In this document: positions 28,565-43,225 of the stretch, piece after piece | How positions within the stretch are numbered: position 1 is the stretch's first letter | Layout of the letters: every line of letters begins with the position of its first letter | NCBI GenBank assembly: GCA_964348415.1 | Contig: CAYGCR010000002.1 | Span: 25,069-89,068 of the forward strand | DNA: 64,000 bases | From: an uncultured Ignavibacteria bacterium | GTDB taxonomy: Bacteria; Zixibacteria; MSB-5A5; SM1-73 | Direction of reading: 5' to 3' | Notes under the pieces: generated by a model | What the model saw: the letters and a program-made list of their open reading frames with translations, nothing else | Database searches by the model: none | Told to the model about the DNA's origin: nothing | Made by a program: the position numbers and the translations under genes

Positions 28565-30013
28565 ATGTTGAAAATTAGCAAGTTAGGTGTGGTCTTGTTA
28601 GTGGCCGGTCTCAGTGTTACGACGGCCTTGTTCTGGGGACAGTCAAGCTTTGCCAGTGTGGGCGAAGGCATGGTCCGCGATTATGATGATTCCTATGGAG
28701 TAAGCCACCGTGTGATGTCCCGTCCGTACCTGGACATTGAAGTGTGGGTGGACAAAGGTGATGGAGCTACCTACTACCCCGGCGATGATATTAAGGTGTA
28801 CTTCCGGGCATCGCGGGACTGCTACGTGGTGGTTTACGATATCGACACCAGGGGATACGTCCACCTTCTCTACCCAGTTGATCGACGAGATGACCCTTAC
28901 GTAGAGGGTGGGAGAGTTTATAGAATACCGGACAGGTTCGATGACTACGAACTGACCGTCAACGGCCCGGATGGAGTGGAATACATCCAGGCGGTGGCAA
29001 GTTTCGAACCCTTAGATCTTCCGAACTTCCCCGGTGAATATTCATATGAGGGTGAGATATATGCATACCAGCTGGAAGGAGAAGACCCTTTTGAATTCAT
29101 GGCGGAAGTCAACGCCGAGATCGCCCCGTACGATTATGCATCGGATGTCTGCATTTTCAGCGTGGAGTATGCGCACCCCAGGTGGTATTACTGGCCGCGG
29201 GTAGTCTACGTGGATCGTCCGGTGGACCTACTCTGGGGAGGCGTCTACTTTGATTATCCCTGGGGCGTGGAAGTATGGATTGATGGAGTATTCTACGGTA
29301 TCACGCCCATCACCATTCCGGCGCTGGTTGTGGGAAGACATTACGTGAGCTTCTGGTATCACGGATGCTGGATATGGAGAGATTGGTTCCACGTAAGAAG
29401 CCACTACGTCGTAACCATTTGGCCTGACTGCCACGACCGCTACCGGTACGTGCATGAAAGATATGTGGAGAAAAGCTATCGGGCAGAAAAAGCCAAAAGA
29501 AGAAGAGGAGTTGGGAAAACCGGTGGGTTGGTAAAACCTGTGAGAATGGTGGAGAAGGGCGGACTGGCTAAAGCCGAGGTCGACCGCATCAAGAACGACA
29601 GGGAAATCAGAAGGGAAGGAGCGGCAAAGAGAAGTAGACTGAAAGATCGCCTCACTCCCTCGCGCATTTCCGAGAAGCAACAACCAAGGAAAATAGAAAA
29701 GGTAGTCAGGAGTCAAAGTCGAAGGTCGTCGCCTTCGGAAAGGCCCGCGACTTTTGACAAAGGAAAAGCTAAGGCAAGGAAGATCACGTCCAAGGGCCGG
29801 AGTCCCGAAAGGATAAGATCCGATCGCAAGCTTACCCGTCCGAAGCAGCCTTCCAAAGTGACGCCCCGGATCCGAGAAGACGACAGGTCAAAAGCGAAGG
29901 CCAGTACGATGAAAATAGGAAAGCCAAGAAGAGCAGTGGCAAAACCATCAGGTGTAAGGACAACCCAGGCGAAGAGACCAACCCACAGCAAACCGGACAA
30001 GAGAAGAAGATAA
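28565..30013 (+). CDS. Secreted DUF4384-like/PEGA-domain protein with a ~170-aa extremely basic (K/R/S/P-rich) C-terminal tail.
   Basis: Signal peptide. The PEGA-like segment is GVEVWIDGVFYGITPITIPALVVGRHYVSF. The tail is a low-complexity RRR/KAK/SPER region resembling histone H1. Confidence 0.65.
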   Translation: MLKISKLGVVLLVAGLSVTTALFWGQSSFASVGEGMVRDYDDSYGVSHRVMSRPYLDIEVWVDKGDGATYYPGDDIKVYFRASRDCYVVVYDIDTRGYVHLLYPVDRRDDPYVEGGRVYRIPDRFDDYELTVNGPDGVEYIQAVASFEPLDLPNFPGEYSYEGEIYAYQLEGEDPFEFMAEVNAEIAPYDYASDVCIFSVEYAHPRWYYWPRVVYVDRPVDLLWGGVYFDYPWGVEVWIDGVFYGITPITIPALVVGRHYVSFWYHGCWIWRDWFHVRSHYVVTIWPDCHDRYRYVHERYVEKSYRAEKAKRRRGVGKTGGLVKPVRMVEKGGLAKAEVDRIKNDREIRREGAAKRSRLKDRLTPSRISEKQQPRKIEKVVRSQSRRSSPSERPATFDKGKAKARKITSKGRSPERIRSDRKLTRPKQPSKVTPRIREDDRSKAKASTMKIGKPRRAVAKPSGVRTTQAKRPTHSKPDKRRR

Positions 30014-30200: not shown

Positions 30201-30740
30201 GTGAGGGAGATGAAGAAAAGACTTATCATTCTTGTATGCATTTTGACCCTGTTGGCTTTTGTTTCTTCGGCCTCCGCCATAAATCGGGCGCCCAAGAAGA
30301 GTGCCGAAAGCAAGGATGAGCCGACTGAGCTCAAAGAGAAAACCAAGGATAGGGCGAAGACAAAGCCTAAATCGAGAGCTTCCTCCTTGTCTGAGAAGGT
30401 CGTCCGCAGCGGTCCAAGCAAGCAGCGGATAGTACCCAAAGAATCTAAGGATCCGAGACGAGGCTCTGAGAGCAAAGGGAGCAAGGAGAAGTATGACTAC
30501 TTCATGGATAAAAACAACAATGGCATCGACGACCGGTTGGAAAAGGACGTAAAGAAAAAAAGGGTCCCAAAGCAAGAGATGACCGAGAAGAAAGCCTCTG
30601 TTCCGTCGGAAAAAACGCCGGCCAAGATCAAACCCGTGGAGAGGACACCGCAGAAGGTGAAGGATACGGAGGTAAAGCAGAAGAAGGCACAGCCAAAGCG
30701 AAGAGAGATTGAGAGGAAGGGCCAAAGTAAGAGAAGATAG
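30201..30740 (+). CDS. Secreted low-complexity K/E/R-rich protein.
   Basis: Clear signal peptide (MKKRLIILVCILTLLAFVSSASA) followed by a charged low-complexity body. A strong terminator follows. Confidence 0.55.
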   Translation: MREMKKRLIILVCILTLLAFVSSASAINRAPKKSAESKDEPTELKEKTKDRAKTKPKSRASSLSEKVVRSGPSKQRIVPKESKDPRRGSESKGSKEKYDYFMDKNNNGIDDRLEKDVKKKRVPKQEMTEKKASVPSEKTPAKIKPVERTPQKVKDTEVKQKKAQPKRREIERKGQSKRR

Positions 30741-31233: not shown

Positions 31234-32442
31234 ATGACCACCAAGTTTCAGGCCAAAGAGGCGGGGCTTACCGGCAATCTGCAGACGGTTCCCGTTTCCG
31301 ATCTGCTGCAGCTGATCAGCGCGGCTGCGAAAACGGGCATGCTTTCCATTTCGCAGGAAAGCAAGAAAAGACAGATATACTTCGTGAAGGGAAATATCAC
31401 CTGTGCCACTGCCTCGGGAACCGAAGATGAGCTTTTGGGGAACCTATTGTTGGCTCAGAAGAGGATTCCGAAAGCCGAGTTAGAACGGGCTCTAAGCCTT
31501 CAGAAGCTCACTCACAAAAGATTGGGCAGCCTGCTCCAAGAGATGGGCTTGATAAACAGAGAAGAATTGACAAAGTTTTTACGCTTCCAAGTGGAGGAGA
31601 TAGTCTACAATCTGTTTGGCTGGAGTTCCGGCGCGTTTACCTTTTACGAAGGTGAGTCGCCGCCTGCAGAACTGGTCACCACCCAGCTCAACACTATGAA
31701 CGTCATCATGGAGGGCACCAGAAGAATCGATGAGTGGATCCAAATCCAGCAGGCTCTTCCCTCGGACGATGTGAAGGTTCAAACCATCAAGAATCCTAAG
31801 ATAAAGTCAAATACCTTGACCATGAGCGTAGCGGAACTGCAGGTGCTGCCCCTGATAGACGGAGAGAAGAACGTTTCCGAGCTTATACAGACCAGCCCTG
31901 TGAGCGAATTCCACACGCGCAAAGCACTGTATAACTTGATCAGTTCAGGGTTGGTTGAGGCCGGCGAGAAAAAGAAGACGACCAAACACAAGATCAGTGA
32001 TGATAAGCTTCTTTTGTACGTGATAATCAAACTATACTCTCAGTCATATCAAACGCTGGAAAGAATGGCCTCCCGAAAATTAGGGCAGGGAGCGAAGAGG
32101 ATTTTAAAGAGATGTTTTGACGCTCAAAAATCCCTGCACCCTTTCCTAACTAAACTGGAAAGCTCTAAAGACTTCTTGGATTTCAGTCACCTGGAAAGCT
32201 CGGCGGGTAAGGTGACACAACCTATCCGATTTCACAAGCTGATGAACGCACTGAACGGTCTGCTTCTGGAATTTCTGAGGGCAGTATCCACAAGTTTGGG
32301 GAGAAACATAAGCAGACAGATCATATCCCAGATCAAGAAGGAAGCGGCCCAGGTCGTGGCCGAGCAAAGAGGAATCTCAAAAGAGTATGAGTTGGAGGAG
32401 GAGATTCTGAAGACTCTGAAAGAGAGTCAGCTGACTGCTTAG
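31234..32442 (+). CDS. PATAN/DUF4388-domain protein. This domain family has been noted in association with MglA-like GTPase loci.
   Basis: The N-terminal ~110 aa match the DUF4388/PATAN pattern: LTGNLQTVPVSDLLQLISAAAKTGMLSISQE...IYFVKGNI...ASGTEDELLGNLL. It is co-directional with and upstream of the mglBA cluster. Confidence 0.6.
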   Translation: MTTKFQAKEAGLTGNLQTVPVSDLLQLISAAAKTGMLSISQESKKRQIYFVKGNITCATASGTEDELLGNLLLAQKRIPKAELERALSLQKLTHKRLGSLLQEMGLINREELTKFLRFQVEEIVYNLFGWSSGAFTFYEGESPPAELVTTQLNTMNVIMEGTRRIDEWIQIQQALPSDDVKVQTIKNPKIKSNTLTMSVAELQVLPLIDGEKNVSELIQTSPVSEFHTRKALYNLISSGLVEAGEKKKTTKHKISDDKLLLYVIIKLYSQSYQTLERMASRKLGQGAKRILKRCFDAQKSLHPFLTKLESSKDFLDFSHLESSAGKVTQPIRFHKLMNALNGLLLEFLRAVSTSLGRNISRQIISQIKKEAAQVVAEQRGISKEYELEEEILKTLKESQLTA

Positions 32443-32471: not shown

Positions 32472-32873
32472 ATGGTTAAAAGACTCAGCTTTGTCGTTAT
32501 CTTGGGACTCATATTTTTTGCCGCAGGAGTCTGTTGCGCTCAGGAAGAGACTGAGGCTTTGCGGGCAACAGTTAGTGGTTCAGGCTCTTCATCGCCTGTT
32601 CCGGCGCTTCTGGACGTCTTACTTCTGGCGGGGGCGTTCGCCTGTTTTGTGATTTCCGTGAGGGTTAAGTCATTCTTGAGGGATGGGGAGCTGGCTTCGG
32701 GATGGACTCTTTTTTCGCTTTCTTTTGTGCTTCTCTTCGTGTCTCAGGTTCTGAGTTTATCCTTAAGTGCTGGGTTTCTGCAGGTCTCTCCCAGCATAAT
32801 CTCATCCCTGCGTGTTTTGTTCATCCTTCTTCTGGCTTCCGGTATCCATTTCATGAAGAAGGTTCTGAGTTGA
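32472..32873 (+). CDS. Small membrane protein (signal peptide plus 3 TM helices).
   Basis: Hydropathy pattern only. No family was recognised. Confidence 0.45.
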   Translation: MVKRLSFVVILGLIFFAAGVCCAQEETEALRATVSGSGSSSPVPALLDVLLLAGAFACFVISVRVKSFLRDGELASGWTLFSLSFVLLFVSQVLSLSLSAGFLQVSPSIISSLRVLFILLLASGIHFMKKVLS

Positions 32874-33111: not shown

Positions 33112-33960
33112 TTGAAGCCGAGAGGAATTATGCAACCCGGTTCGCAAGTGGACGAGAGAATCTCTAAGTGTGAAGAGATTCTGTCTCGTAATCCTAAGTC
33201 TGTGATTTTCGCGGCTCTGTCGGATGCCTACCGCAAGAAGGGAGATTTGGCCAGGGCGTTCCATATTTGCGGCCAAGGATTGAAATCTCATCCCGACTAT
33301 GGCCCGGGGCATCTGGTGATGGCGAAAATCAACATGGAAAGAGGGATGTACTCGGAGGCAGAAAGGGAACTGGCCCTGGCGGTCCGGGCAGATGGGAAGA
33401 CGAGAGCCACGGAGCTTCTTTTAGCTCAGATTTTAACAAAGAGGGGTCAAATAAAAGGGGCCAAGAAGATCTTGGAAAAGCTCAGAACCAGTGATCCAGC
33501 AAATGAGCTGATCGGTGAGCTGCTGGAGAGCATAAGGCAAAAAGAGAAATCAGACAAGCCCAGCCGTGCCATGGCAGCGGTGGATGAACGATGGCATATC
33601 GAGAAGGTCGCGGACCTTGAAGATGGCGTACACTGTTTGAAATCCTTGCCCGGGGTAATAGGAGCTCTGGTGATAGGAGAGGACGGATCAGTAATGGAGA
33701 GCAAGGTCAAACCTGAACTAGATCCAGAGGTGCTGGCCGCAATCGCCAACAGCATCACCGGATGTGTCAAGAACGGGATATCCGACGTGGGGTTTGGGGA
33801 ATATGCCGACATCTTGGTGGAAACTGGAAATCTCCAGCTGTGGATTACAGGTTTGAAGGAGACGTCTCTACTGTTATGTTGTGACCCCGAAACCAATATG
33901 GGGGCCTTGAGAATAAAAGTGACTGAACTTGTGGGACATATCTGGGGAAATGATGCATAA
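33112..33960 (+). CDS. TPR-repeat / Roadblock-LC7 (MglB-like) fusion protein.
   Basis: The N-terminal ~140 aa are TPR-like, with AYRKKGDLARAFHICGQGLKSHPDYGPGHLVMAKINMERGMYSEAERELALA. The C-terminal ~100 aa carry a Roadblock-like pattern: IGALVIGEDGSVMES...AAIANSITG...ADILVETGNLQLWITGL. Confidence 0.65.
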   Translation: MKPRGIMQPGSQVDERISKCEEILSRNPKSVIFAALSDAYRKKGDLARAFHICGQGLKSHPDYGPGHLVMAKINMERGMYSEAERELALAVRADGKTRATELLLAQILTKRGQIKGAKKILEKLRTSDPANELIGELLESIRQKEKSDKPSRAMAAVDERWHIEKVADLEDGVHCLKSLPGVIGALVIGEDGSVMESKVKPELDPEVLAAIANSITGCVKNGISDVGFGEYADILVETGNLQLWITGLKETSLLLCCDPETNMGALRIKVTELVGHIWGNDA

Positions 33961-33974
33961 AAAAGGGGAGTAAA

Positions 33975-34916
33975 GTGGCTAAGGATTACAGTAAGGAGCT
34001 GAGGGGAATCCTTCTGGTCTCACTTTTCATCGTGGTGGTACCGTTGGTATTCTTTCCTAAGGATTTCGGGTTAAAATTAGGATCTTCACTCGTTCTGCCC
34101 TTCGCCCTGGAGCTGGGGTGGTATCTGCTGGTTCTATTCATTATGTTTTCGGAAACAACAGCTGCGAGGGTATTGCTGTTTGCTTTGTTGACACTGGCTT
34201 ACCGTATCGGCCTGGGGATTGGATTTGGCATCCTTCTTCTGGTTATGTTCTCCCTGCCTTTATCCTCCGCCTTAGGCTTAGGTATCTACCGGTATGCGCC
34301 AGCTTTTTTGCTTCAGGCCTTGATGTCGCCATTCGCGCTCAAGTCGCTTTTTCAAGTTCTCACCCAAAGAGTAAAGAGAACACAGGAAATTCAAGTACCG
34401 GAAACGTCGGATGCAAAGTTTGCCCAGAAGACCGCCCGGCCGGCTCTGTCCGATGCTCCGCCTGAATTGGATAAAGAGTCGGATGGGGCGAAAACAGTTT
34501 CTTCCGAAAAGGAGAGCAGGGTGATAGGAGAAAACAAATTGGAACACATCTTACACTATCTAAGAGAATATGCCGGAGTCAAAGCCGCCGTTCTGCTCGA
34601 TCATGAGGGTCTGGTGATAGCTGAGGATTCTCGCGATTTTGATCCGGAAACTGTCGCCTGTTTCGGTCGATGCTTGAAGGAAATGAACGACCAAATGCTT
34701 CACAGGATAGGGCAAAAGACTGCGGAACGGATTGGAATTCATACAACAGATATGTGGATATGCTTAAACCAGGTAGGAAACTTGACGTTGCTGGTACTGT
34801 CGGATCGCCGCACGGACGAACTTCTTTCAGTTCGAATATCGCAGTCCACCGGAATGATAAGAAAACTTCTCAGCGAGAGATACCAGCCAGGAGTGTTAAA
34901 AGCCGTGGAGGTATGA
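33975..34916 (+). CDS. Polytopic membrane-anchored Roadblock/LC7-domain protein.
   Basis: Four predicted TM helices in the N-terminal 125 aa, a linker, then a Roadblock-like segment: VKAAVLLDHEGLVIAEDSRDFDPETVACFGRCLKEMND...NLTLLVLSD. Confidence 0.65.
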   Translation: MAKDYSKELRGILLVSLFIVVVPLVFFPKDFGLKLGSSLVLPFALELGWYLLVLFIMFSETTAARVLLFALLTLAYRIGLGIGFGILLLVMFSLPLSSALGLGIYRYAPAFLLQALMSPFALKSLFQVLTQRVKRTQEIQVPETSDAKFAQKTARPALSDAPPELDKESDGAKTVSSEKESRVIGENKLEHILHYLREYAGVKAAVLLDHEGLVIAEDSRDFDPETVACFGRCLKEMNDQMLHRIGQKTAERIGIHTTDMWICLNQVGNLTLLVLSDRRTDELLSVRISQSTGMIRKLLSERYQPGVLKAVEV

Positions 34917-34917
34917 C

Positions 34918-35268
34918 ATGTACAAGATATTGGAGGAATTGAACAAGACTACCGGGATCAACGGAAGCATGGTAGTGGGTCAGGACGGAATCGTGATTGC
35001 CGCGGATTTGAATTCCCAACTTCAGGACGAGGCGGTTGGTGCCTTGGCCGCTTCCATCGTTGGCACGGTTAAGAAATCAATGGAACGCCTTTCTAATGAA
35101 GACCTGAAGCAGATAACCGTGGAGGCCGATAAGGGTAAGTTTTTCTTTGCTGATGTGGGCATAGGCATCTTGGCGGTCACCACGGATCCCCAGGTGAACG
35201 TAGGATTGGTTCGTCTCGAGATCAAGAACGCGGCAGAAAAGATAAAACAGATACCCAAGTCCGTCTGA
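34918..35268 (+). CDS. mglB: MglB-type Roadblock/LC7 protein, the cognate GAP-family partner of MglA.
   Basis: 116-aa Roadblock-fold pattern: INGSMVVGQDGIVIAADL...ASIVGTVKKS...FADVGIGILAVTTD. Its ATG overlaps the upstream stop, and it lies immediately upstream of mglA as in the myxobacterial mglBA arrangement. Confidence 0.8.
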   Translation: MYKILEELNKTTGINGSMVVGQDGIVIAADLNSQLQDEAVGALAASIVGTVKKSMERLSNEDLKQITVEADKGKFFFADVGIGILAVTTDPQVNVGLVRLEIKNAAEKIKQIPKSV

Positions 35269-35300: not shown

Positions 35301-36275
35301 ATGGCATCCATAAACTATGCGTCCAAGGAGATCTCCTGCAAGATAGTCTTCTACGGTCCCGGCCTCTCCGGAAAGACAACCAATCTCCAATATGTTCACA
35401 AAAAGATTCCGCCTCAGACCAGGGGCGAACTGATCTCTCTGGCCACCGATCAGGATAGGACACTCTATTTTGATTTTCTTCCGGTGGACATCGGGAAGGT
35501 ACACGGGTTTTCCACCAAGTTTCAACTTTACACCGTGCCCGGTCAGGTGTACTACAACGCTACCCGGAAACTGGTGCTAAGGGGAGTGGACGGTCTGGTA
35601 TTTGTGGCGGACTCTCAGAAAAGCAAAATGGATGAGAACATAGAGAGCTTTCAGAACCTGGTGGAGAATCTATCAGAGTACGGATATAAAATAGACAGAA
35701 TTCCTGTAGTATTTCAGTATAACAAAAGGGACCTTCCCAACATCAGTCCTGTGGTGGAATTGGAGAAGACGTTGAACCCCAAAGGCTTGCCCCATTTCGA
35801 AGCCATCGCTACCAGGGGAATAGGCGTGTTCGATAGTCTGAAATGCATTAGTAAATTGGTCCTGGATCAAGCCAAGCGCAAGCAACTTTTCCCTGAAAGG
35901 GAGATGGCTGGGCAAGAAGCCGAAAAAGTGTCGGCCGATGGTGAGCTCTCGCAGACGCCGGAAAAAGAGCCGATTGCAGCAAAGGTGACCTCCACACCTA
36001 CGGCAACTGAAGTTTCAGGCCAACGGCCAGTTGCCACCTTAGCTAAGAAGGAAGTGGAGCCCTCCCCGAAGCAGATAATTCCAGAGCCACTAAAAGCTCA
36101 GCAGGAAAGAGTCCCGGAGGTCGGGCCGGACGCGGGCGAGTTCGCCGAAGAGGACGAGAAGATGGAAAGGACCTTGGCCAAAGACAGCTCCACCATAATA
36201 AGCTGGTCTGCCGGCAAGACGGCCAAGCCGGGAGGATTCTTTTTGTGGCGTTGGTTGAGCAAACTTTTCAAATAG
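35301..36275 (+). CDS. mglA: MglA-family Ras-like small GTPase with a ~130-aa C-terminal low-complexity extension.
   Basis: The N-terminal ~190 aa align closely to Myxococcus MglA: P-loop GPGLSGKT, intrinsic Arg in DRTLYFDF, catalytic Gln in TVPGQ, and NKRD G4. The C-terminal extension, rich in E/P/A/K/T, ends in GGFFLWRWLSKLFK. Confidence 0.85.
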   Translation: MASINYASKEISCKIVFYGPGLSGKTTNLQYVHKKIPPQTRGELISLATDQDRTLYFDFLPVDIGKVHGFSTKFQLYTVPGQVYYNATRKLVLRGVDGLVFVADSQKSKMDENIESFQNLVENLSEYGYKIDRIPVVFQYNKRDLPNISPVVELEKTLNPKGLPHFEAIATRGIGVFDSLKCISKLVLDQAKRKQLFPEREMAGQEAEKVSADGELSQTPEKEPIAAKVTSTPTATEVSGQRPVATLAKKEVEPSPKQIIPEPLKAQQERVPEVGPDAGEFAEEDEKMERTLAKDSSTIISWSAGKTAKPGGFFLWRWLSKLFK

Positions 36276-36288
36276 ACAGAGTGGAGGT

Positions 36289-36825
36289 GTGAAATTGAGA
36301 CAGGAGGACCTTGTAATCTACGAGGAGCAAATCGAGAAGATAGAAAAAGCTCTGATGAAGTTGATCAAGGGCGCACAAGCCAAGTGTGTTCTCCTGGTGG
36401 ATAAAGATGGGCATCTGATCACTCGACACGGTTTCACTCAGTCTTTGGATACCACTGCCTTGGCGGCGCTTCTGGCGGGAAGTTTCGCTTCCACCCGAGA
36501 GATCGCCCGTCTTGTTGGAGAGCCGGAATTTTCAGTTCTTTTCCACCAAGGCAAAAAGGATCATATCCACATAACCCTGGTGGGCGAAAGGACCATTCTG
36601 GCGGTCATCTTTGATGATCGGACAACCATCGGTATGGTTCGGCTGTATGCCAAGGAGGCCTCGGAGAATCTGAAGAGAATCCTGTACCTCACCCAGCATC
36701 AGAAGCCCCGAGGCGAACCGGAAAAAGAAGCAGATGCAGATTCAGAGTTCTCCACCTCTTTGGAAAGCAGGCTGGATGATATCTTCTCCGATAAGCCCGA
36801 GAAAGAGGATATCCCAACGGGATGA
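36289..36825 (+). CDS. Roadblock/LC7-domain protein with an acidic C-terminal tail. It is a second stand-alone MglB/MglC-like paralogue.
   Basis: Roadblock-like segment: AKCVLLVDKDGHLITRHG...AALLAGSFASTREIA...ILAVIFDD. The tail is EPEKEADADSEFSTSLESRLDDIFSDKPEKED. Start is GTG or TTG. Confidence 0.65.
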   Translation: MKLRQEDLVIYEEQIEKIEKALMKLIKGAQAKCVLLVDKDGHLITRHGFTQSLDTTALAALLAGSFASTREIARLVGEPEFSVLFHQGKKDHIHITLVGERTILAVIFDDRTTIGMVRLYAKEASENLKRILYLTQHQKPRGEPEKEADADSEFSTSLESRLDDIFSDKPEKEDIPTG

Positions 36826-36954: not shown

Positions 36955-38646
36955 ATGTCACGTGAACTGGGACAAATGCTAGTTAAGGCGGGCAAGATAT
37001 CCGAGGAACAGCTTGCCCAGGCCTTAGAGTCACAGAAACAGAGCAAAGAGAAATTAGGCGATGCTCTCATAAGAACGGGTGCGCTCTCCGGTGAGGAGGA
37101 GCTCTCAGAGTTTATCGGGAGACAGCTAAATATCGGCGCTTTGAGGCTTTCCGACATTGAGCTCAACCCTGAGGTGGTCAAGATGATTCCCCCGGACATC
37201 GCCCGAAAGTTTAATGTCATCGCCATCAGCAAGCTGGGCAAGACATTGATAGTGGCCATTTCCGACCCCAACAACATCTATGTTCTGGACGCCATAAAGT
37301 TCATCTCCGGGCACTCGGTCCAGCCGGTCATAAGTCCAGAGAAAGCCATTCAGAAGGCCATTGATGCCTACTATCAAGACACCGGAGGATTGGACCAGAT
37401 TCTTAAGGGACTGAAAGAAGAGGATCTGCAGGTCATCGAGGAGAACGAAGACATTCCTACCGAACAGGATCTAAGGTCCCAGGTGCAGGACAAGCCTTTA
37501 GTCAAGTTGGTGGACTCTATCATCGCGGACGCTATTCGAAGAGGATGTTCGGACATCCATATCGAAAGTTATGAGAAGCGAATAAGAGTCAGATACAGAT
37601 TGGATGGTCGTTTGCAGGAAATGTCTCCCTTGCCCTTTAAATATCGTGCGGCCCTGGTTTCCCGGGTAAAGATAATGGCTGACTTAGACATCTCCGAAAG
37701 AAGACTACCCCAGGACGGCAGGATTAAGGTGAAGTTCGGCGAGAGGGCGGTGGATCTAAGGGTATCCGTGTTGCCCACCATATTCGGTGAGAAGGTGGTA
37801 ATGCGCATTCTGGATCCCAGAAGCGTTAACGTGAATCTGACCAGACTGGGATTCTCGGAAAACTCACTCAGGCAGTTCCAAAAAGCCATTCACTTTCCCT
37901 ACGGCATGATACTTGTGACCGGACCCACCGGGAGTGGTAAAACTACCACTCTCTATTCAGCTTTGAAGCAGATTAACCACACGGACATCAATATAACGAC
38001 CGCCGAGGACCCGGTGGAATTCAATTTTGACGGCATAAATCAGGTGGCGGTGAAAAGTGAGATAGGGTTAAGCTTTGCCGCGTCCTTACGATCGTTTTTG
38101 AGACAGGACCCGGACGTGATCATGGTGGGAGAGATCAGAGATGGCGAGACTGCAGAGATCGCGGTGAGAGCCGCACTAACCGGACATCTGGTGTTCTCCA
38201 CGCTGCACACCAACGATGCTCCCAGTACCATCGATCGGCTGATCGATATGGGCATTCCCAATTATCTGGTGGCCTCCTGCGTCAGGTTGGTCATGGCTCA
38301 AAGAATGGTGCGCAAGATCTGTCCCAGCTGCAAGCGCGTGGCTCAAGTTCCCAAAGCCACTTTTGAGATGTTAGGATTCGGCGATGAGCAGATAAAAGAT
38401 CTGAAGGTTTATGAAGGCAAGGGTTGCTCCGAATGCAATGATACCGGCTATTCCGGGAGAACCGGGATTTTTGAGGTGATGCCGATAAGTCCTGAGATCG
38501 AGAAGATGATCGTTTCCAACGCCTCCAGCGCAGAGATAAGAGAACAGGCCATATCCGAGGGCATGCTGACTTTGAGAATTGCCGCACTGGAAAAGCTGAA
38601 GCAGGGCACCACCACTGTGGGAGAGGTCTTAGCGGTGACTTCCTAG
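36955..38646 (+). CDS. pilB: Type IV pilus assembly (extension) ATPase PilB, of the GspE family.
   Basis: N-terminal T2SSE_N domain, Walker A VTGPTGSGKTTTL, the tetracysteine CxxC...CxxC motif (CPSCKR...CSEC), 563 aa. Confidence 0.85.
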   Translation: MSRELGQMLVKAGKISEEQLAQALESQKQSKEKLGDALIRTGALSGEEELSEFIGRQLNIGALRLSDIELNPEVVKMIPPDIARKFNVIAISKLGKTLIVAISDPNNIYVLDAIKFISGHSVQPVISPEKAIQKAIDAYYQDTGGLDQILKGLKEEDLQVIEENEDIPTEQDLRSQVQDKPLVKLVDSIIADAIRRGCSDIHIESYEKRIRVRYRLDGRLQEMSPLPFKYRAALVSRVKIMADLDISERRLPQDGRIKVKFGERAVDLRVSVLPTIFGEKVVMRILDPRSVNVNLTRLGFSENSLRQFQKAIHFPYGMILVTGPTGSGKTTTLYSALKQINHTDINITTAEDPVEFNFDGINQVAVKSEIGLSFAASLRSFLRQDPDVIMVGEIRDGETAEIAVRAALTGHLVFSTLHTNDAPSTIDRLIDMGIPNYLVASCVRLVMAQRMVRKICPSCKRVAQVPKATFEMLGFGDEQIKDLKVYEGKGCSECNDTGYSGRTGIFEVMPISPEIEKMIVSNASSAEIREQAISEGMLTLRIAALEKLKQGTTTVGEVLAVTS

Positions 38647-38773: not shown

Positions 38774-39868
38774 ATGGTTACTTTACGAGAACTTCTGGAA
38801 CTGATGGCAAAAAAGAACGCTTCAGATCTTCATCTTACCGTGGGCTCGCCACCCCAGCTCAGAATAGACGGAAAGCTGGTCAAGACTGATTACGACATCT
38901 TGACGGCAGATGAAACCAAGAAGTTGGCCTACAGCGTGATGACTGAAAAGCAACGGCAGACATTCGAGGAAAAAAGCGAGCTGGATCTTTCCTTCGGAAT
39001 TGAAAACTTGAGCAGATTCAGATGCAACATCTTCATGCAGAGGGGCAATGTGGCGGCAGCTTTAAGACAGATTCCTTTTCGCATTCCGAGTTTTGAGGAG
39101 TTGGGCATACCCAAGGTAGTCTCGGAGTTGGCCGACCTGCCCAGGGGTTTAGTCTTGGTGACCGGGCCGACTGGAAGCGGAAAATCTACCACCTTGGCCG
39201 CCTTGATCAACAAGATAAATCTGGAAAGGTATTGCCACATTCTCACGGTGGAGGATCCCATTGAATACCTTCATCGACACAATTGTTCCCTGATTAACCA
39301 GAGGGAGGTTTATGCCGACACCGCCTCTTTTGGCAAGGCTTTGAAATACGCCTTGAGAGAGGATCCCGACGTGGTGCTGGTGGGAGAGATGAGAGATTTG
39401 GAGACCATGGAGGCGACCCTGAACATCTCCGAAACCGGACATCTGGCATTCGCCACCCTGCACACCAACTCCTGCGCTGAATCGATAAACAGAATCATCG
39501 ACGTTTTTCCCACCAATCAGCAGGAGCAGGTCCGGGTGACCGTCTCTTTTGTTTTGCAGGCGGTGATAAGCCAGCAGCTGATTCCCAGGATAGGAGGAGG
39601 AAGGGTGTTGGCTCTGGAGATTATGATCTGCACACCGGCCATCAGAGCTTTGATCAGGGATGACAAGATTCATCAGATCTACAGTCTTATGCAGGCAGGG
39701 CAGAAGTTTGGCATGAGGACCATGAATCAAGGTTTAGCTGAGCTCTACATCAAGCATAAGATAACCTTGGGGGACGCTCTGGGAAGAAGCTCAAACATCC
39801 AGGAGCTAAATGAGATTTTGGCCAGAAAATCTGATGCCAGCCGGCAGCGGTCGGCCATTGGCGCTTAG
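38774..39868 (+). CDS. pilT: Twitching-motility retraction ATPase PilT.
   Basis: Walker A VTGPTGSGKSTTLAAL, the His box ATLHTNS and the PilT-type N-terminus ELLELMAKKNASDLHLTVGSPP. Confidence 0.85.
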   Translation: MVTLRELLELMAKKNASDLHLTVGSPPQLRIDGKLVKTDYDILTADETKKLAYSVMTEKQRQTFEEKSELDLSFGIENLSRFRCNIFMQRGNVAAALRQIPFRIPSFEELGIPKVVSELADLPRGLVLVTGPTGSGKSTTLAALINKINLERYCHILTVEDPIEYLHRHNCSLINQREVYADTASFGKALKYALREDPDVVLVGEMRDLETMEATLNISETGHLAFATLHTNSCAESINRIIDVFPTNQQEQVRVTVSFVLQAVISQQLIPRIGGGRVLALEIMICTPAIRALIRDDKIHQIYSLMQAGQKFGMRTMNQGLAELYIKHKITLGDALGRSSNIQELNEILARKSDASRQRSAIGA

Positions 39869-40019: not shown

Positions 40020-41219
40020 TTGCCAGTTTTCACCTATAAGGGAAGGACGTCGGCGGGAACTCAGGTTCAGGGTGAGCTGAGGGCAAAAAACCGAGCTGAA
40101 TTGGAGAGGGTCTTGAGGAACAGGAAAATCCTGGTTTCTCACATCTCCACCAAGCCTTCCCAGGTAAGCATAAGAATTGGGTCCGGAATAAAGAAGGTGC
40201 ACATCTCCAGGTTCACCCGGCAATTCGCCACCATGATCGGGGCCGGACTCCCCATGGTGCAGTGTCTGGAGATATTATCCCAGCAAATGGAATCAGCACA
40301 ACTGAGGAAGATCATCAGCGATGTAAAGGAGAGCGTGCAGTCCGGAACCACTCTGGCCGAAGCTTTGTCCCGGCATAAGAAAGTCTTCGATGATCTTTAT
40401 GTCAACATGGTGGACGCAGGTGAGATCGGAGGCGCTCTGGACGTCATTCTGGTACGCCTGGCCACATATCGGGAAAAGGCCGATGCCCTGGCCCGCAAGG
40501 TTAAAGGGGCGCTAATCTATCCGGCGGTGGTGATGACTGTGGCCATAGCGGTGACCTTTATCATGCTGACTTACATAGTTCCCATCTTCGCCAAAATGTT
40601 TCATGGTCTGGGTGCGGAGCTACCCGGTCCTACCAGATTCGTCCTCTCTTTGAGCGGCTTTCTCAGAGGTAACATACTGACCGGGTTGGTGTTGCTAATC
40701 CTGGTGATAGTCGGATACAGATTCTATTCCAAGACTGATCGGGGCAAATACAATATTGACGCCCTGAAGCTGAAAATCCCGCTTATCGGAGACCTGATCA
40801 GGAAAAGCTCCATCTCAAGGTTTTCGCGGACCCTGGGAACCCTGATCTCATCCGGTGTTCCCATCCTGGATGCTCTGGAGATAACCGCTCGCGCTTCTGG
40901 CAACCGGGTGATACATGATGCCATAAAGAGGTCGGTTCTGTCCATCGCAGAAGGAGAGACAATAACGCAACCTCTGAGACAGTGCGGGGTCTTCCCTCCC
41001 ATGGTTACTCAGATGATTTCCGTCGGAGAAAAGACCGGCGGCCTGGATGACATGCTTTCCAAGATCGCTGACTTTTATGACGAAGAGGTGGATGCTGCGG
41101 TGGCGGCGTTAACCTCCATCATCGAGCCGGTGATAATTGTGTTCATGGGAATTGTGGTCGGAGGAATCCTGATAGCCATGTATCTCCCAATGTTCGAGAT
41201 CATTGGCAAGATCCAGTAA
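40020..41219 (+). CDS. pilC: Type IV pilus inner-membrane platform protein PilC, of the GspF family.
   Basis: Duplicated GspF domains with 3 TM helices, about 400 aa. It lies immediately downstream of pilB and pilT. Confidence 0.85.
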   Translation: MPVFTYKGRTSAGTQVQGELRAKNRAELERVLRNRKILVSHISTKPSQVSIRIGSGIKKVHISRFTRQFATMIGAGLPMVQCLEILSQQMESAQLRKIISDVKESVQSGTTLAEALSRHKKVFDDLYVNMVDAGEIGGALDVILVRLATYREKADALARKVKGALIYPAVVMTVAIAVTFIMLTYIVPIFAKMFHGLGAELPGPTRFVLSLSGFLRGNILTGLVLLILVIVGYRFYSKTDRGKYNIDALKLKIPLIGDLIRKSSISRFSRTLGTLISSGVPILDALEITARASGNRVIHDAIKRSVLSIAEGETITQPLRQCGVFPPMVTQMISVGEKTGGLDDMLSKIADFYDEEVDAAVAALTSIIEPVIIVFMGIVVGGILIAMYLPMFEIIGKIQ

Positions 41220-41365
41220 ATACAACCTGACTGCGCTGAGCAAGTCAAAAATACATCTAACCTAACCTTGCACCACTGCGGCTCTTAGCGGTGGTGTAAG
41301 TTTTTAAGCATTTTTAGGTTTCAAATCCTGAACAGTTTCTTATTACGTCCGGAAAGCGAATCCGA

Positions 41366-43225
41366 ATGAACAGAAGAACGTGGTTTCATTTTTTGAGAAA
41401 GCTCAACGCCGGACTTGAGCAGACATTTTTCGGAAGGGACCGAAACGGCAAGCAAATACAGAGGTATGCGAGCAAGTCAGAGGTCTCCCTCTCCAGAATC
41501 CCCTGGTTTCTGATATCCCGCCTTTCCATATTTGTCCTCTTACTGATAATTGTGGTTCTGTTTTTCCAGATGCCGGATTCTCTGGTCCTTGCCTTCACCA
41601 CCTACTCCTTCATAACCCTGGCTCTTCTTCTGCTCATTGCGTTTGATCTGAAGCAAACTTATCATCTGCTGTTCAGTGCCGTAGTTGTTTTGCAGCTGAT
41701 TCTGGAGATCATAGTCGAAACCGGGTTGGTACATCACACCGGAGGCATGGGCAGTCCCTTTGCCGTCCTTTTTGTTTTGACTATACTATCCGCAAGTCTG
41801 GCTTACGGCTTAGTCGGAAGCGTGTGTATGGCCGGCTTGTCCAGCCTGGCATACGCCTCTGTCCTGTGGGTTGAGGAAGGTTTGGAACTATCTTTTAAAG
41901 GCCTCCTTTACGCTAGTGATGCTTCATTCTATGAAGCATTTCTCTACATCTGCACCTTCTTTTTGGTGGCTTTCATAAGTGGCTATCTGACGCAAAGATT
42001 GAAAGCAAAGGGCCAGGAGCTGTGGACTGCTTCCCTGGAATTGGACAAAATAAAGGCGGATACAGACGAGATACTAAGACACCTGAAAAGCGGCCTCATT
42101 ACGATCGACGCCTGGGGCAGGATTGTTTATTTCAACCGGGCAGCAGAGGAGATATTGGGATATTCCGAAAGCGAGGTAAAAGGGAGAGACTGCCGGGAGG
42201 TATTCCGGCAAAGGATGCCTCAGCTGGCAGAAAAAATAATTCAGGTGATAAAGCTCAACGAGGAACATGCCAGGGGTCTGCTTTATATCGAGGACAAAAA
42301 CGGGCGAAAGATTCCCATAGGCATAAGCACTTCCATTCTGGGGGACACGGAAACGGGCGTGAGAGGTGTGATCGCCATATTCCAGGATATAAGCGAGGCC
42401 ATGAAGCTGGAGGAGAGAATCCGGGTGGCCGACAAGCTGGCTGCAGTTGGCGAACTCTCTGCCGGAATCGCCCACGAGATACGAAATCCTTTGGCCTCTA
42501 TCTCAGGATCGGTGGAAGTTTTGAAGGAGGAGCTTGCCCTGTCCCGGGAGAATCGAAATCTTCTGGACCTGGTAATCAAAGAGACAGACAGGCTGAATCG
42601 GATTGTGACTGATTTTCTGACTTATGCCCGCATCGGCCCCTCGTTGTTAGGCAAAGTGGAGTTGCTGCATCTCCTGGATGACGTCATAGAGATTGCGAGG
42701 AAGCATCCTTGCTATAAGGAAAGTGTCTCCTTTCACAAGATCTTCTCAACGCAGGTGCGATACGTGGTGGGCGAAGAAAATCAGATAAAACAGATATTCT
42801 TGAACCTGCTGGTGAATGCGCTGGAGGCCATGGAGGGCAGGTGGGGTAAGATAGTGATAAGTGATAGAAGCTTGAGTCAACTGGATAAATTCTATTTTCG
42901 GGACGAGGAGCCGGAGGAATCCGAGTGGGTGCCCATTGCGATTGTAGATGAAGGAAAAGGAATGACAGAAGAGCAAAAACAGAAGATTTTCTCCCCGTTT
43001 TATTCTGGCAAAAAAAATGGCACCGGCCTGGGGCTGGCCATAGTACAGAGGCTGGTGAACAACTTAGGCGGAAAGATAGAATTCCGCAGCCAGGAGGGTA
43101 AAGGCTCGGCTTTTGTGGTATATCTGCAGAAGTACACGAAACAGAAGGTTAAGCTCTTTCAGACAGCACCCACCGGGAATCTGGCAAACCTCGACGTTTC
43201 CACTTCGGAATTTCACCTAACCTAA
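41366..43225 (+). CDS. pilS: PilS-like membrane sensor histidine kinase: multi-TM N-terminus, PAS, HisKA, HATPase_c.
   Basis: Six TM helices in the N-terminal ~200 aa, a PAS-like region, H-box AHEIRNPL, and G1/G2 boxes (DEGKGM, GTGLGLAIV). No response-regulator gene follows. Confidence 0.75.
   Translation: MNRRTWFHFLRKLNAGLEQTFFGRDRNGKQIQRYASKSEVSLSRIPWFLISRLSIFVLLLIIVVLFFQMPDSLVLAFTTYSFITLALLLLIAFDLKQTYHLLFSAVVVLQLILEIIVETGLVHHTGGMGSPFAVLFVLTILSASLAYGLVGSVCMAGLSSLAYASVLWVEEGLELSFKGLLYASDASFYEAFLYICTFFLVAFISGYLTQRLKAKGQELWTASLELDKIKADTDEILRHLKSGLITIDAWGRIVYFNRAAEEILGYSESEVKGRDCREVFRQRMPQLAEKIIQVIKLNEEHARGLLYIEDKNGRKIPIGISTSILGDTETGVRGVIAIFQDISEAMKLEERIRVADKLAAVGELSAGIAHEIRNPLASISGSVEVLKEELALSRENRNLLDLVIKETDRLNRIVTDFLTYARIGPSLLGKVELLHLLDDVIEIARKHPCYKESVSFHKIFSTQVRYVVGEENQIKQIFLNLLVNALEAMEGRWGKIVISDRSLSQLDKFYFRDEEPEESEWVPIAIVDEGKGMTEEQKQKIFSPFYSGKKNGTGLGLAIVQRLVNNLGGKIEFRSQEGKGSAFVVYLQKYTKQKVKLFQTAPTGNLANLDVSTSEFHLT

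Follow-up and report, generated by a model that had tools for sequence, protein, structure and literature searches.

Roadblock proteins fused to TPR repeats or to a four-helix membrane domain in the MglA/MglB and pilus gene cluster of Zixibacteria

The MglA/MglB pair is the model for bacterial Ras-like polarity switches, and to our knowledge all that has been learned about it derives from the soluble components of Myxococcus, Thermus and Bdellovibrio. What, then, might Roadblock proteins that carry a membrane domain or a protein-interaction scaffold contribute to such a switch? This question is raised by a 64,000-nucleotide (nt) stretch of contig CAYGCR010000002.1 (positions 25,069 to 89,068, forward strand; hereafter the window), in which two consecutive genes encode a fusion of TPR repeats to a Roadblock domain (TPR-Roadblock) and a fusion of four transmembrane (TM) helices to a Roadblock domain (TM-Roadblock). 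Both genes lie just upstream of mglA, mglB and a set of pilus genes. We find the two fusions to be conserved in the uncultured phylum Zixibacteria, and consider it somewhat probable that they are accessory Roadblock subunits that anchor the MglA/MglB switch to the membrane and act as its scaffold, close to the adjacent pilus motor PilB/PilT/PilC.

Architecture of the two fusion proteins

The two genes and the parts of their products are as follows.

33130..33960, + strand: TPR-Roadblock, 276 amino acids (aa); TPR region aa 1-141 (33130-33552), linker aa 142-162, Roadblock domain aa 163-274 (33616-33951)
33975..34916, + strand: TM-Roadblock (4TM-Roadblock), 313 aa; membrane domain aa 1-121 (33975-34337), basic juxtamembrane helix and variable disordered linker aa 122-185 (34338-34529), Roadblock domain aa 186-302 (34530-34880)

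An earlier note, made from the sequence alone, had described the first gene as about 140 residues of TPR repeats followed by a Roadblock domain at its C-terminus; Pfam, AlphaFold2 (AF2) and Foldseek agree with that description. Specifically, Pfam recognizes TPR_19 (5e-12) and TPR_14 (1.4e-8), both above cutoff, and Robl_LC7 at 1.6e-7 (aa 176-256 of the 282-aa reading), with about 3.5 TPR repeats ahead of the Roadblock domain. In the AF2 model (mean predicted local distance difference test score, pLDDT, of 84), eight antiparallel helices at aa 3-141 (pLDDT ~90-96) are followed by disorder at aa 142-154 and by an alpha-beta Roadblock domain at aa 163-274. Profiles, model and Foldseek concur in identifying the N-terminal region as tandem helix-turn-helix units of about 34 residues, and the best Foldseek matches are the Asgard Roadblock 7yh1, LAMTOR2, MglB and consensus TPR proteins. 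The start of the gene, placed at TTG 33112 in the earlier note, is better assigned to ATG 33130, because this codon is preceded by the ribosome-binding site GAGAGGA and gives a protein of 276 aa, the modal length of some 230 homologues.

Among 76 species, the TPR region (identity 53%) is better conserved than the Roadblock domain (31%), and Cys14 and Cys47 are retained in at least 95%. A Cys-Cys pair in the Roadblock domain, Cys249-250, is nearly invariant in the close family. The conserved cysteines could form a metal or redox site, or could reflect mere structural packing.

The second gene was said to encode four TM helices, a linker and a Roadblock domain. Hydropathy, AF2, a family profile and Foldseek bear this out, and both of the hydrophobic strings quoted for it are present. 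By the Kyte-Doolittle scale, hydrophobic segments lie at about aa 9-27, 39-57, 64-82 and 78-96, with peaks of 1.7-2.6. AF2 places helices of 18-30 residues at aa 3-26, 40-57, 63-92 and 96-121, then a juxtamembrane helix at aa 123-140, a disordered stretch at aa 140-185 (pLDDT <30) and the Roadblock domain at aa 180-302 (pLDDT ~90). Across 329 homologues, the highest counts of lysine and arginine fall at the N-terminus, in loop 2 and beyond TM4 (3.97 per sequence there), and the lowest in loop 3. By the positive-inside rule, this distribution fits a four-TM topology with both termini inside and a cytoplasmic Roadblock domain. Hydropathy, predicted helices and charge distribution thus all describe a polytopic inner-membrane protein. 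PDB entry 4lto, a bacterial ion-transport protein, is matched by the TM region only marginally (E=0.047), and the match was dismissed as compositional.

Pfam assigns Robl_LC7 to TM-Roadblock at 4.6e-5, and the same profile reaches E<=0.01 in 13 of 23 diverse members of its family. With a Pfam score this near threshold, the fold assignment for this protein rests mainly on profile and structure searches. The family profile matches the PDB Roadblock structure 7f8f at 2.5e-6, and the best Foldseek match is Myxococcus xanthus MglB (6hjm; target TM-score 0.82, root-mean-square deviation 2.0 Å over 123 columns), with Asgard Roadblocks, LAMTOR2 and the Streptomyces protein 3kye ranking next.

Are these domains simply two more copies of MglB? 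By sequence profiles and predicted structures, both fusions are members of the Roadblock/LC7 superfamily and are not MglB orthologues. They score 31.4 (TPR-Roadblock) and 23.5 bits (TM-Roadblock) against Robl_LC7 (Pfam PF03259, of the profilin-like clan), for which the cutoff is 23. Both C-terminal domains are predicted to adopt the alpha-beta-beta-alpha-beta-beta-beta-alpha Roadblock sandwich of about 100-120 residues (pLDDT ~85-92), and Foldseek matches both to MglB, Asgard Roadblocks, LAMTOR2 and 3kye with probability 1.00 and target TM-scores of 0.7-0.86. PDB sequence searches with either fusion protein return no MglB chain at E<=10, neither protein matches the NCBIfam MglB model, and the C-terminal tail of MglB is likewise absent from both. 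Two outcomes that the earlier note had named in advance as telling against its description, a lack of any Roadblock match and a lack of TM helices, were looked for, and neither occurred.

The MglA, MglB and pilus gene cluster

Both fusion genes belong to a cluster that begins with a PATAN gene and runs through the genes for the pilus motor, all on the plus strand. Its other features are listed here.

31234..32442, + strand: PATAN (DUF4388/PatA_N) protein, 402 aa, first gene of the conserved cluster (Pfam DUF4388, 4.8e-34)
32472..32873, + strand: small conserved membrane protein, 133 aa, recognized by hydropathy
34918..35268, + strand: third Roadblock paralogue, soluble and single-domain, 116 aa (Pfam Robl_LC7, 4e-14)
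35301..36275, + strand: MglA orthologue, 324 aa; G domain aa 1-193 (35301-35879), P/E/A/S-rich linker aa 194-304, polybasic amphipathic tail 36213-36272
36289..36825, + strand: MglB orthologue, 178 aa, with C-terminal tail SRLDDIFS
36955-38646, + strand: PilB (Pfam T2SSE, 1.3e-140, plus MshEN)
38774-39868, + strand: PilT (Pfam T2SSE, 4.7e-44)
40020-41219, + strand: PilC (Pfam T2SSF, 4.4e-69)
41267..41300, + strand: terminator-like hairpin just 3' of pilC, a 13-pair stem followed by a T-run
41366-43225, + strand: PilS-like kinase

The genes for TPR-Roadblock, TM-Roadblock, the 116-aa Roadblock, MglA and MglB are separated by gaps of 14, 1, 32 and 13 nt. The first of these, from the stop codon TAA 33958-33960 to GTG 33975, had been given correctly; the overlap claimed between the second stop and the next start proves to be the 1-nt gap between TGA 34914-34916 and ATG 34918. 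With such tight spacing, the two fusion genes are probably co-transcribed with the third Roadblock gene, mglA and mglB. The hairpin at 41267-41300 has the longest stem among 13 terminator-like sites scanned; lying after pilC, it probably marks the end of the operon. Scans of the region for sigma-70 promoters and terminators gave counts no higher than those from shuffled sequence, and this hairpin is the sole noteworthy site. Open reading frames (ORFs) on the minus strand over both fusion genes (e.g. 33447-33896 and 34278-34547) are unsupported and were taken as spurious.

The gene that follows TM-Roadblock had been called mglB. It is instead a third Roadblock paralogue and not an MglB orthologue, as its matches to the Asgard Roadblocks 7yh1 and 7f8m (5e-10 and 8.5e-8), the best in the PDB, are far better than its match to MglB (0.018). 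Counterparts of 112-119 aa occur in every Zixibacteria locus examined, and the protein may serve as an adaptor of the MglC kind or pair with one of the fusions as a heterodimer. The MglB orthologue lies downstream of mglA, at 36289-36825. It matches M. xanthus MglB at 2.4e-35, has the conserved acidic/hydrophobic C-terminal tail, and aligns over its full length with the NCBIfam MglB model at 6.4e-26, yet below the equivalog cutoff. In a comparison of the residues at A64 and G68 of M. xanthus MglB, the position equivalent to G68 is Glu even in Zixibacteria MglB. When the window is searched with a hidden Markov model made from the four Roadblock domains, the only matches are these four ORFs of the cluster. 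Because neither fusion matches MglB by sequence, the module has a single MglA, a single MglB and three additional Roadblock proteins.

The MglA orthologue aligns with M. xanthus MglA over aa 1-193 at 1.8e-78, and its YTVPGQ (G3) motif and the DRTL context of Arg53 are identical to those of the M. xanthus protein. Rather than the usual ~195 aa, MglA has 324-411 aa in Zixibacteria loci. All seven orthologues compared share one layout: a G domain, a P/E/A/S-rich linker of 108-196 aa with low conservation, a polybasic patch and a short hydrophobic or amphipathic C-terminal segment. The extension in the window begins at 35880 and ends in the tail GKTAKPGGFFLWRWLSKLFK (36213-36272); other examples are KKRGFIKRLFGIK (locus L004, see below) and GFFLWRWLSKLFK. 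The long MglA genes of the other loci are at these positions.

L001: 9320-10300
L002: 9316-10287
L004: 9334-10476
L005: 9350-10471
L006: 8794-10029
L007: 10112-11287

The tail is a putative membrane-targeting sequence. It looks like the membrane-targeting sequences of the MinD/FtsA type, and recalls the hypervariable region and anchor of eukaryotic Ras and Rab proteins. The tail from L004 resembles the membrane-targeting sequence of MinD, a likeness that we take as a lead only.

At the other end of the cluster, the PATAN protein carries an MshEN-like motif for binding cyclic di-GMP (c-di-GMP) at aa 68-119, inside the PATAN domain (NCBIfam NF053729, 2.5e-12, above cutoff), which suggests a c-di-GMP input to the module. 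That PATAN genes occur next to mglA and mglB is known from earlier work (PMC4316618). The small membrane protein at 32472-32873 has an N-terminal hydrophobic segment and three more by hydropathy, with no Pfam match and no known family. Its syntenic homologues have 120-145 aa and conserve C58, G72, W78 and G124. Two further ORFs lie 5' of the cluster. The one at 28565-30013 encodes a DUF4384 and PEGA-like protein whose C-terminal half is very basic and rich in Lys and Arg, and the one at 30201-30740 a secreted-looking, Lys/Glu-rich protein of 179 aa with no family match.

Distribution and conservation in Zixibacteria

How widespread are the two fusions? The window comes from a metagenome-assembled genome of candidate division Zixibacteria and has a 100% match at GTO24_23920. 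The close family of TM-Roadblock comprises 118 full-length members that are 45-100% identical, and all those with a name come from Zixibacteria. An exhaustive profile search, which covered 1.8 billion cluster representatives, yielded 241 matches. These include more than 100 full-length two-domain proteins (300-350 aa, representatives of 50%-identity clusters), with identities as low as about 23%. In the largest group there are 75 representatives, which are from Zixibacteria wherever named and are mostly annotated as 'hypothetical protein' with no Pfam match. Full-length matches number 118 and 168 in two clades, and the most divergent named members are also from Zixibacteria, including the original RBG-1 genome. 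TPR-Roadblock has relatives in 201 species-representative genomes. The loci of these genomes were gathered with the TPR-Roadblock alignment, and 80 of the 201 are listed. Most of the 80 are titled Zixibacteria, and about 25 are labelled as Ignavibacteria-type, one as Terriglobales and one as Deferrimicrobium; these labels are unverified, and we claim no spread beyond Zixibacteria.

Gene order was compared in six further Zixibacteria loci (L001, L002 and L004 to L007), including the complete chromosomes CP070839.1, CP070674.1 and CP070742.1. All six share the order PATAN, small membrane protein, TPR-Roadblock, Roadblock with or without the TM domain, Roadblock of about 113 aa, long MglA, MglB, PilB, PilT, PilC and usually PilS, while the identity of TM-Roadblock falls to about 28%. 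Both fusions are a conserved feature of the phylum and are not rare. The earlier note had called them unusual, which holds relative to the characterised MglB and MglC proteins but not in the sense of rarity.

The same data bear on whether the fusions might be artefacts of annotation or assembly, such as mis-joined ORFs, frameshifts or chance hydrophobic ORFs. Metagenome-assembled genomes can hold chimeric contigs, and some family entries are indeed truncated or frameshifted. Nevertheless, the same two-domain layout recurs in the full-length cluster representatives and in the 118 and 168 full-length matches of the two clades. It is also found on the complete chromosomes CP070839.1 and CP070674.1, and conservation is strong in both domains. 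We regard an artefactual origin as effectively refuted. A related candidate, gene fission producing TM-only proteins, was rejected since the instances are contig-end fragments or frameshifted reads.

Downstream of TPR-Roadblock in the 80 listed loci, the next gene encodes TM-Roadblock in 64 and a soluble orthologue in 11, and is cut off by the end of the contig in 5. The soluble orthologues, found in 11 of the 75 evaluable genomes, have 130-156 aa, belong to the same Roadblock subfamily and occupy the same syntenic position as TM-Roadblock. These natural TM-less variants should be useful comparators. In L006, the soluble-variant locus that was examined in full, the small membrane protein between the PATAN gene and TPR-Roadblock is also kept. 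These variants, together with a second feature of gene content that differs among clades, are located as follows.

Soluble, TM-less Roadblock variant: L006 8001-8447 (CP070742.1); also in L036, L050, L053, L054, L058, L062, L063, L067, L070, L080 and L083
ComEC-type competence channel gene, directly upstream of the PATAN gene: L004 3042-5312; L005 3063-5348; L006 3214-5529; L007 3984-6299

In the clade of the window, the position of comEC is occupied by other genes. The contiguity of the cluster with pilB, pilT and pilC, and with comEC in other clades, is one reason to ask whether the fusions are structural or assembly proteins of the competence or type IV pilus machinery that work without MglA and use the Roadblock domain only to dimerise. 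That neither fusion is an MglB orthologue by sequence points the same way. Gene order disfavours this explanation: in all loci examined, the PATAN gene precedes both genes and the Roadblock-MglA-MglB trio follows them, at spacings of 1-32 nt, and neither gene adjoins the pil genes. In addition, all four Roadblock paralogues are co-conserved with MglA, and Roadblock proteins encoded beside small GTPases co-evolve as their regulators (PMC4316618). We consider an MglA-independent role quite improbable.

The membrane domain of TM-Roadblock raises a more serious alternative. Among the 329 family members, Glu46 in the middle of TM2 and Arg77 in the middle of TM3 are 100% conserved, and conservation is 96% or more for P28, G32, Y50, Y107, P109 and P119. 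The TM and Roadblock domains have mean pairwise identities of 39% and 40%, respectively, although the hydrophobic composition of TM segments inflates such values, and the linker, whose length varies between 30 and 95 residues, has only 17%. In 23 diverse members the TM domain matches no Pfam family, and the exhaustive search found it solely as a fusion to this Roadblock subfamily. We regard it as a newly identified, previously undescribed four-TM domain. The Glu46/Arg77 pair suggests a specific fold or a partner contact and not a generic anchor. The earlier reading of the architecture, in which the same Roadblock fold comes with a TPR scaffold in one protein and a polytopic membrane domain in the other, holds, and 'membrane anchor' may understate a conserved domain with an invariant Glu and Arg.

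Most members of the TM-Roadblock family carry E-x-x-Y-V(S) as a conserved C-terminal tail, which in the clade of the window is reduced to V-E-V; Glu312 is conserved in 98%. It is tempting to speculate that this peptide is a ligand of the neighbouring TPR domain.

The main rival to a tethered platform is that TM-Roadblock is a transmembrane sensor or transducer. The domain containing Glu46 and Arg77 would sense a membrane signal (for example the proton motive force, an ion or lipid, PilC or the neighbouring small membrane protein) and alter the availability or activity of the Roadblock domain toward MglA. That activity could resemble a guanine nucleotide exchange factor or a GTPase-activating protein (GAP), or could be sequestering, and the whole would form a receptor-coupled small G protein comparable to CvnA-CvnB-CvnD. 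This reading draws on a TM domain conserved to the same degree as the Roadblock domain and with 96-100% retention of E46, R77, Y50, Y107, P109 and P119, on the confinement of this Pfam-less domain to one Roadblock subfamily, and on the conserved small membrane protein always encoded two genes upstream of TM-Roadblock. It also has a precedent in the conservons, in which a Roadblock protein and a Ras-like GTPase are combined with a sensor kinase of the membrane (PMC4316618; PMC13343842). Several observations tell against it. The linker, disordered (pLDDT <30) and variable in both length and sequence, is ill-suited to relay a conformational change, and TM-Roadblock has no recognisable HAMP, PAS or similar sensory or transducing module. 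Moreover, 11 of 75 genomes have a soluble orthologue in place of the protein, and in one of them, L006, the small membrane protein is kept; the inflated identity of hydrophobic segments weakens the argument from conservation. On balance, we hold the sensor reading to be possible and rather unlikely.

A tethered Roadblock platform and its relation to known systems

If TM-Roadblock is not mainly a sensor, how could the two fusions serve the MglA switch? Roadblock domains dimerise, and their dimers stack, as in MglC-MglB and Ragulator-Rag. In the tethering and scaffolding arrangement that we favour, TM-Roadblock would hold a Roadblock platform at the cytoplasmic face of the inner membrane through its flexible tether of 30-95 aa, and TPR-Roadblock would enter the platform through its own Roadblock domain. 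The conserved groove of the TPR region might then recruit a further partner, for example a pilus-motor component or a conserved C-terminal tail. The platform would position or sequester MglB, MglA or both, with MglA itself membrane-tethered by its C-terminal polybasic amphipathic tail, and would in this way set where MglA-GTP can activate the pilus motor. We infer scaffold and anchor functions for TPR-Roadblock and TM-Roadblock, respectively, in agreement with the earlier note.

Three features point in this direction. The disordered, length-variable linker of TM-Roadblock argues for tethering rather than rigid transmembrane signalling, the conserved tail of MglA independently points to action at the membrane, and the identity values of the TM domain (39%, about that of the Roadblock domain) and of the TPR region (53%) indicate purifying constraint on both. 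Together, the data suggest an MglA switch with four Roadblock partners assembled on the membrane. Precedents exist. In M. xanthus, stacked Roadblock dimers in a RomR/MglC/MglB assembly are regulated by MglA-GTP, and the authors liken them to Ragulator-Rag (PMC10329633). TPR partners of MglA linked to type IV pili are SgmX (PMC7519303) and Bd2492 of Bdellovibrio (PMC3983030).

Some observations weigh against this proposal. The occurrence of a soluble orthologue in 11 of 75 genomes means that the module can do without a membrane anchor on this subunit. The conservation of the TM domain and its buried charges exceed the needs of an anchor, which fits a role as sensor or transducer. The Pfam Roadblock score of TM-Roadblock barely clears its threshold (23.5 against 23). 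Adjacency to pilB, pilT and pilC is no proof of pilus regulation, and with comEC directly upstream in other clades, the pili may function in DNA uptake, either in addition to motility or in its place.

Comparison with characterised systems places the fusions more precisely. In fold they are like MglB of M. xanthus and Thermus thermophilus (target TM-score 0.82 for TM-Roadblock, 0.71-0.75 for TPR-Roadblock), and they share a probable operon with MglA. However, MglB is a soluble single-domain GAP of MglA, whereas the fusions are not its sequence orthologues and lack its tail. Among functional precedents for additional Roadblock subunits beside MglA, the closest is MglC, a Roadblock paralogue of M. 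xanthus without GAP activity that stacks on the MglB dimer in a contact broken by MglA-GTP (PMC10329633). MglC, which binds MglB and RomR and bears FDI and KRR motifs on its surface, is small and soluble and is localised via RomR, whereas the fusions are neither small nor solely soluble, and their localising element, TM or TPR, would be built in. No chain labelled MglC is among the PDB sequence matches of the fusions or of the 116-aa Roadblock, a result that includes no comparison with an MglC reference sequence. SgmX and Bd2492 bind MglA and connect it to the formation of type IV pili, but they are stand-alone TPR proteins without a Roadblock domain, and TPR-Roadblock gave only generic TPR matches, with no specific sequence relationship.

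In the actinobacterial conservon (CvnA sensor kinase, CvnB Roadblock, CvnC and CvnD GTPase), a membrane protein, a Roadblock protein and a GTPase of the MglA family are likewise encoded together (PMC4316618), and the Streptomyces Roadblock 3kye is a close structural match to the fusions. There, however, the membrane component is a separate protein resembling a histidine kinase, whereas the Zixibacteria TM domain is fused to the Roadblock domain and brings no kinase. Also unlike the conservon, the Zixibacteria GTPase is a Group-1-like MglA orthologue beside pilus genes.

Ragulator/LAMTOR-Rag offers the eukaryotic comparison, in which several Roadblock-fold subunits on a membrane dock a small GTPase, and LAMTOR2 matches the fusions with target TM-scores of 0.79-0.86. 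It differs in being anchored by lipidated LAMTOR1 and not by a TM-Roadblock fusion, and in that Rag GTPases have Roadblock domains of their own. It is compared here for its mechanism alone, with common descent supported no further than the shared fold.

Has this architecture been described before? The proteins are already present in public databases, labelled 'roadblock/LC7 domain-containing' or 'hypothetical'. In the literature on Zixibacteria MglA and on bacterial Roadblock-transmembrane fusions we found no description of either one, and a Roadblock domain fused to a dedicated four-TM domain or to TPR repeats in an operon of mglA/mglB and pilBTC was not found in the literature searched. Wuichet and Sogaard-Andersen (2014) reported only single-domain and receiver-fused MglB homologues and left out GTPases of more than 240 aa, a cutoff by which the class of long MglA proteins would have been missed (PMC4316618). 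Thus, surveys limited to GTPases of fewer than 240 aa and to single-domain MglB homologues overlooked this class.

The Zixibacteria module bears on the question of how the MglA switch is brought to membranes and poles, which in M. xanthus includes how RomR gets to the pole (PMC10329633). In this regard, a whole phylum hard-wires membrane attachment into its MglA module through an integral-membrane Roadblock subunit and apparently also through the tail of MglA, and adds to the module a TPR adaptor fused to another Roadblock domain. The arrangement provides a testable architecture for the recruitment of small GTPases to membranes by Roadblock platforms, and a bacterial comparator for assemblies of the Ragulator type. 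More tentatively, and with considerable doubt, we hypothesize that Zixibacteria run a prokaryotic counterpart of Rag-Ragulator: a stack of Roadblock dimers (TM-Roadblock, TPR-Roadblock, the 116-aa Roadblock and MglB), built on the membrane by an integral subunit, would control a Ras-like GTPase tethered by a hypervariable linker and a polybasic amphipathic tail, and the Glu/Arg pair may couple it to a membrane signal. If true, then membrane-anchored Roadblock platforms for small GTPases arose in bacteria as well as in eukaryotes.

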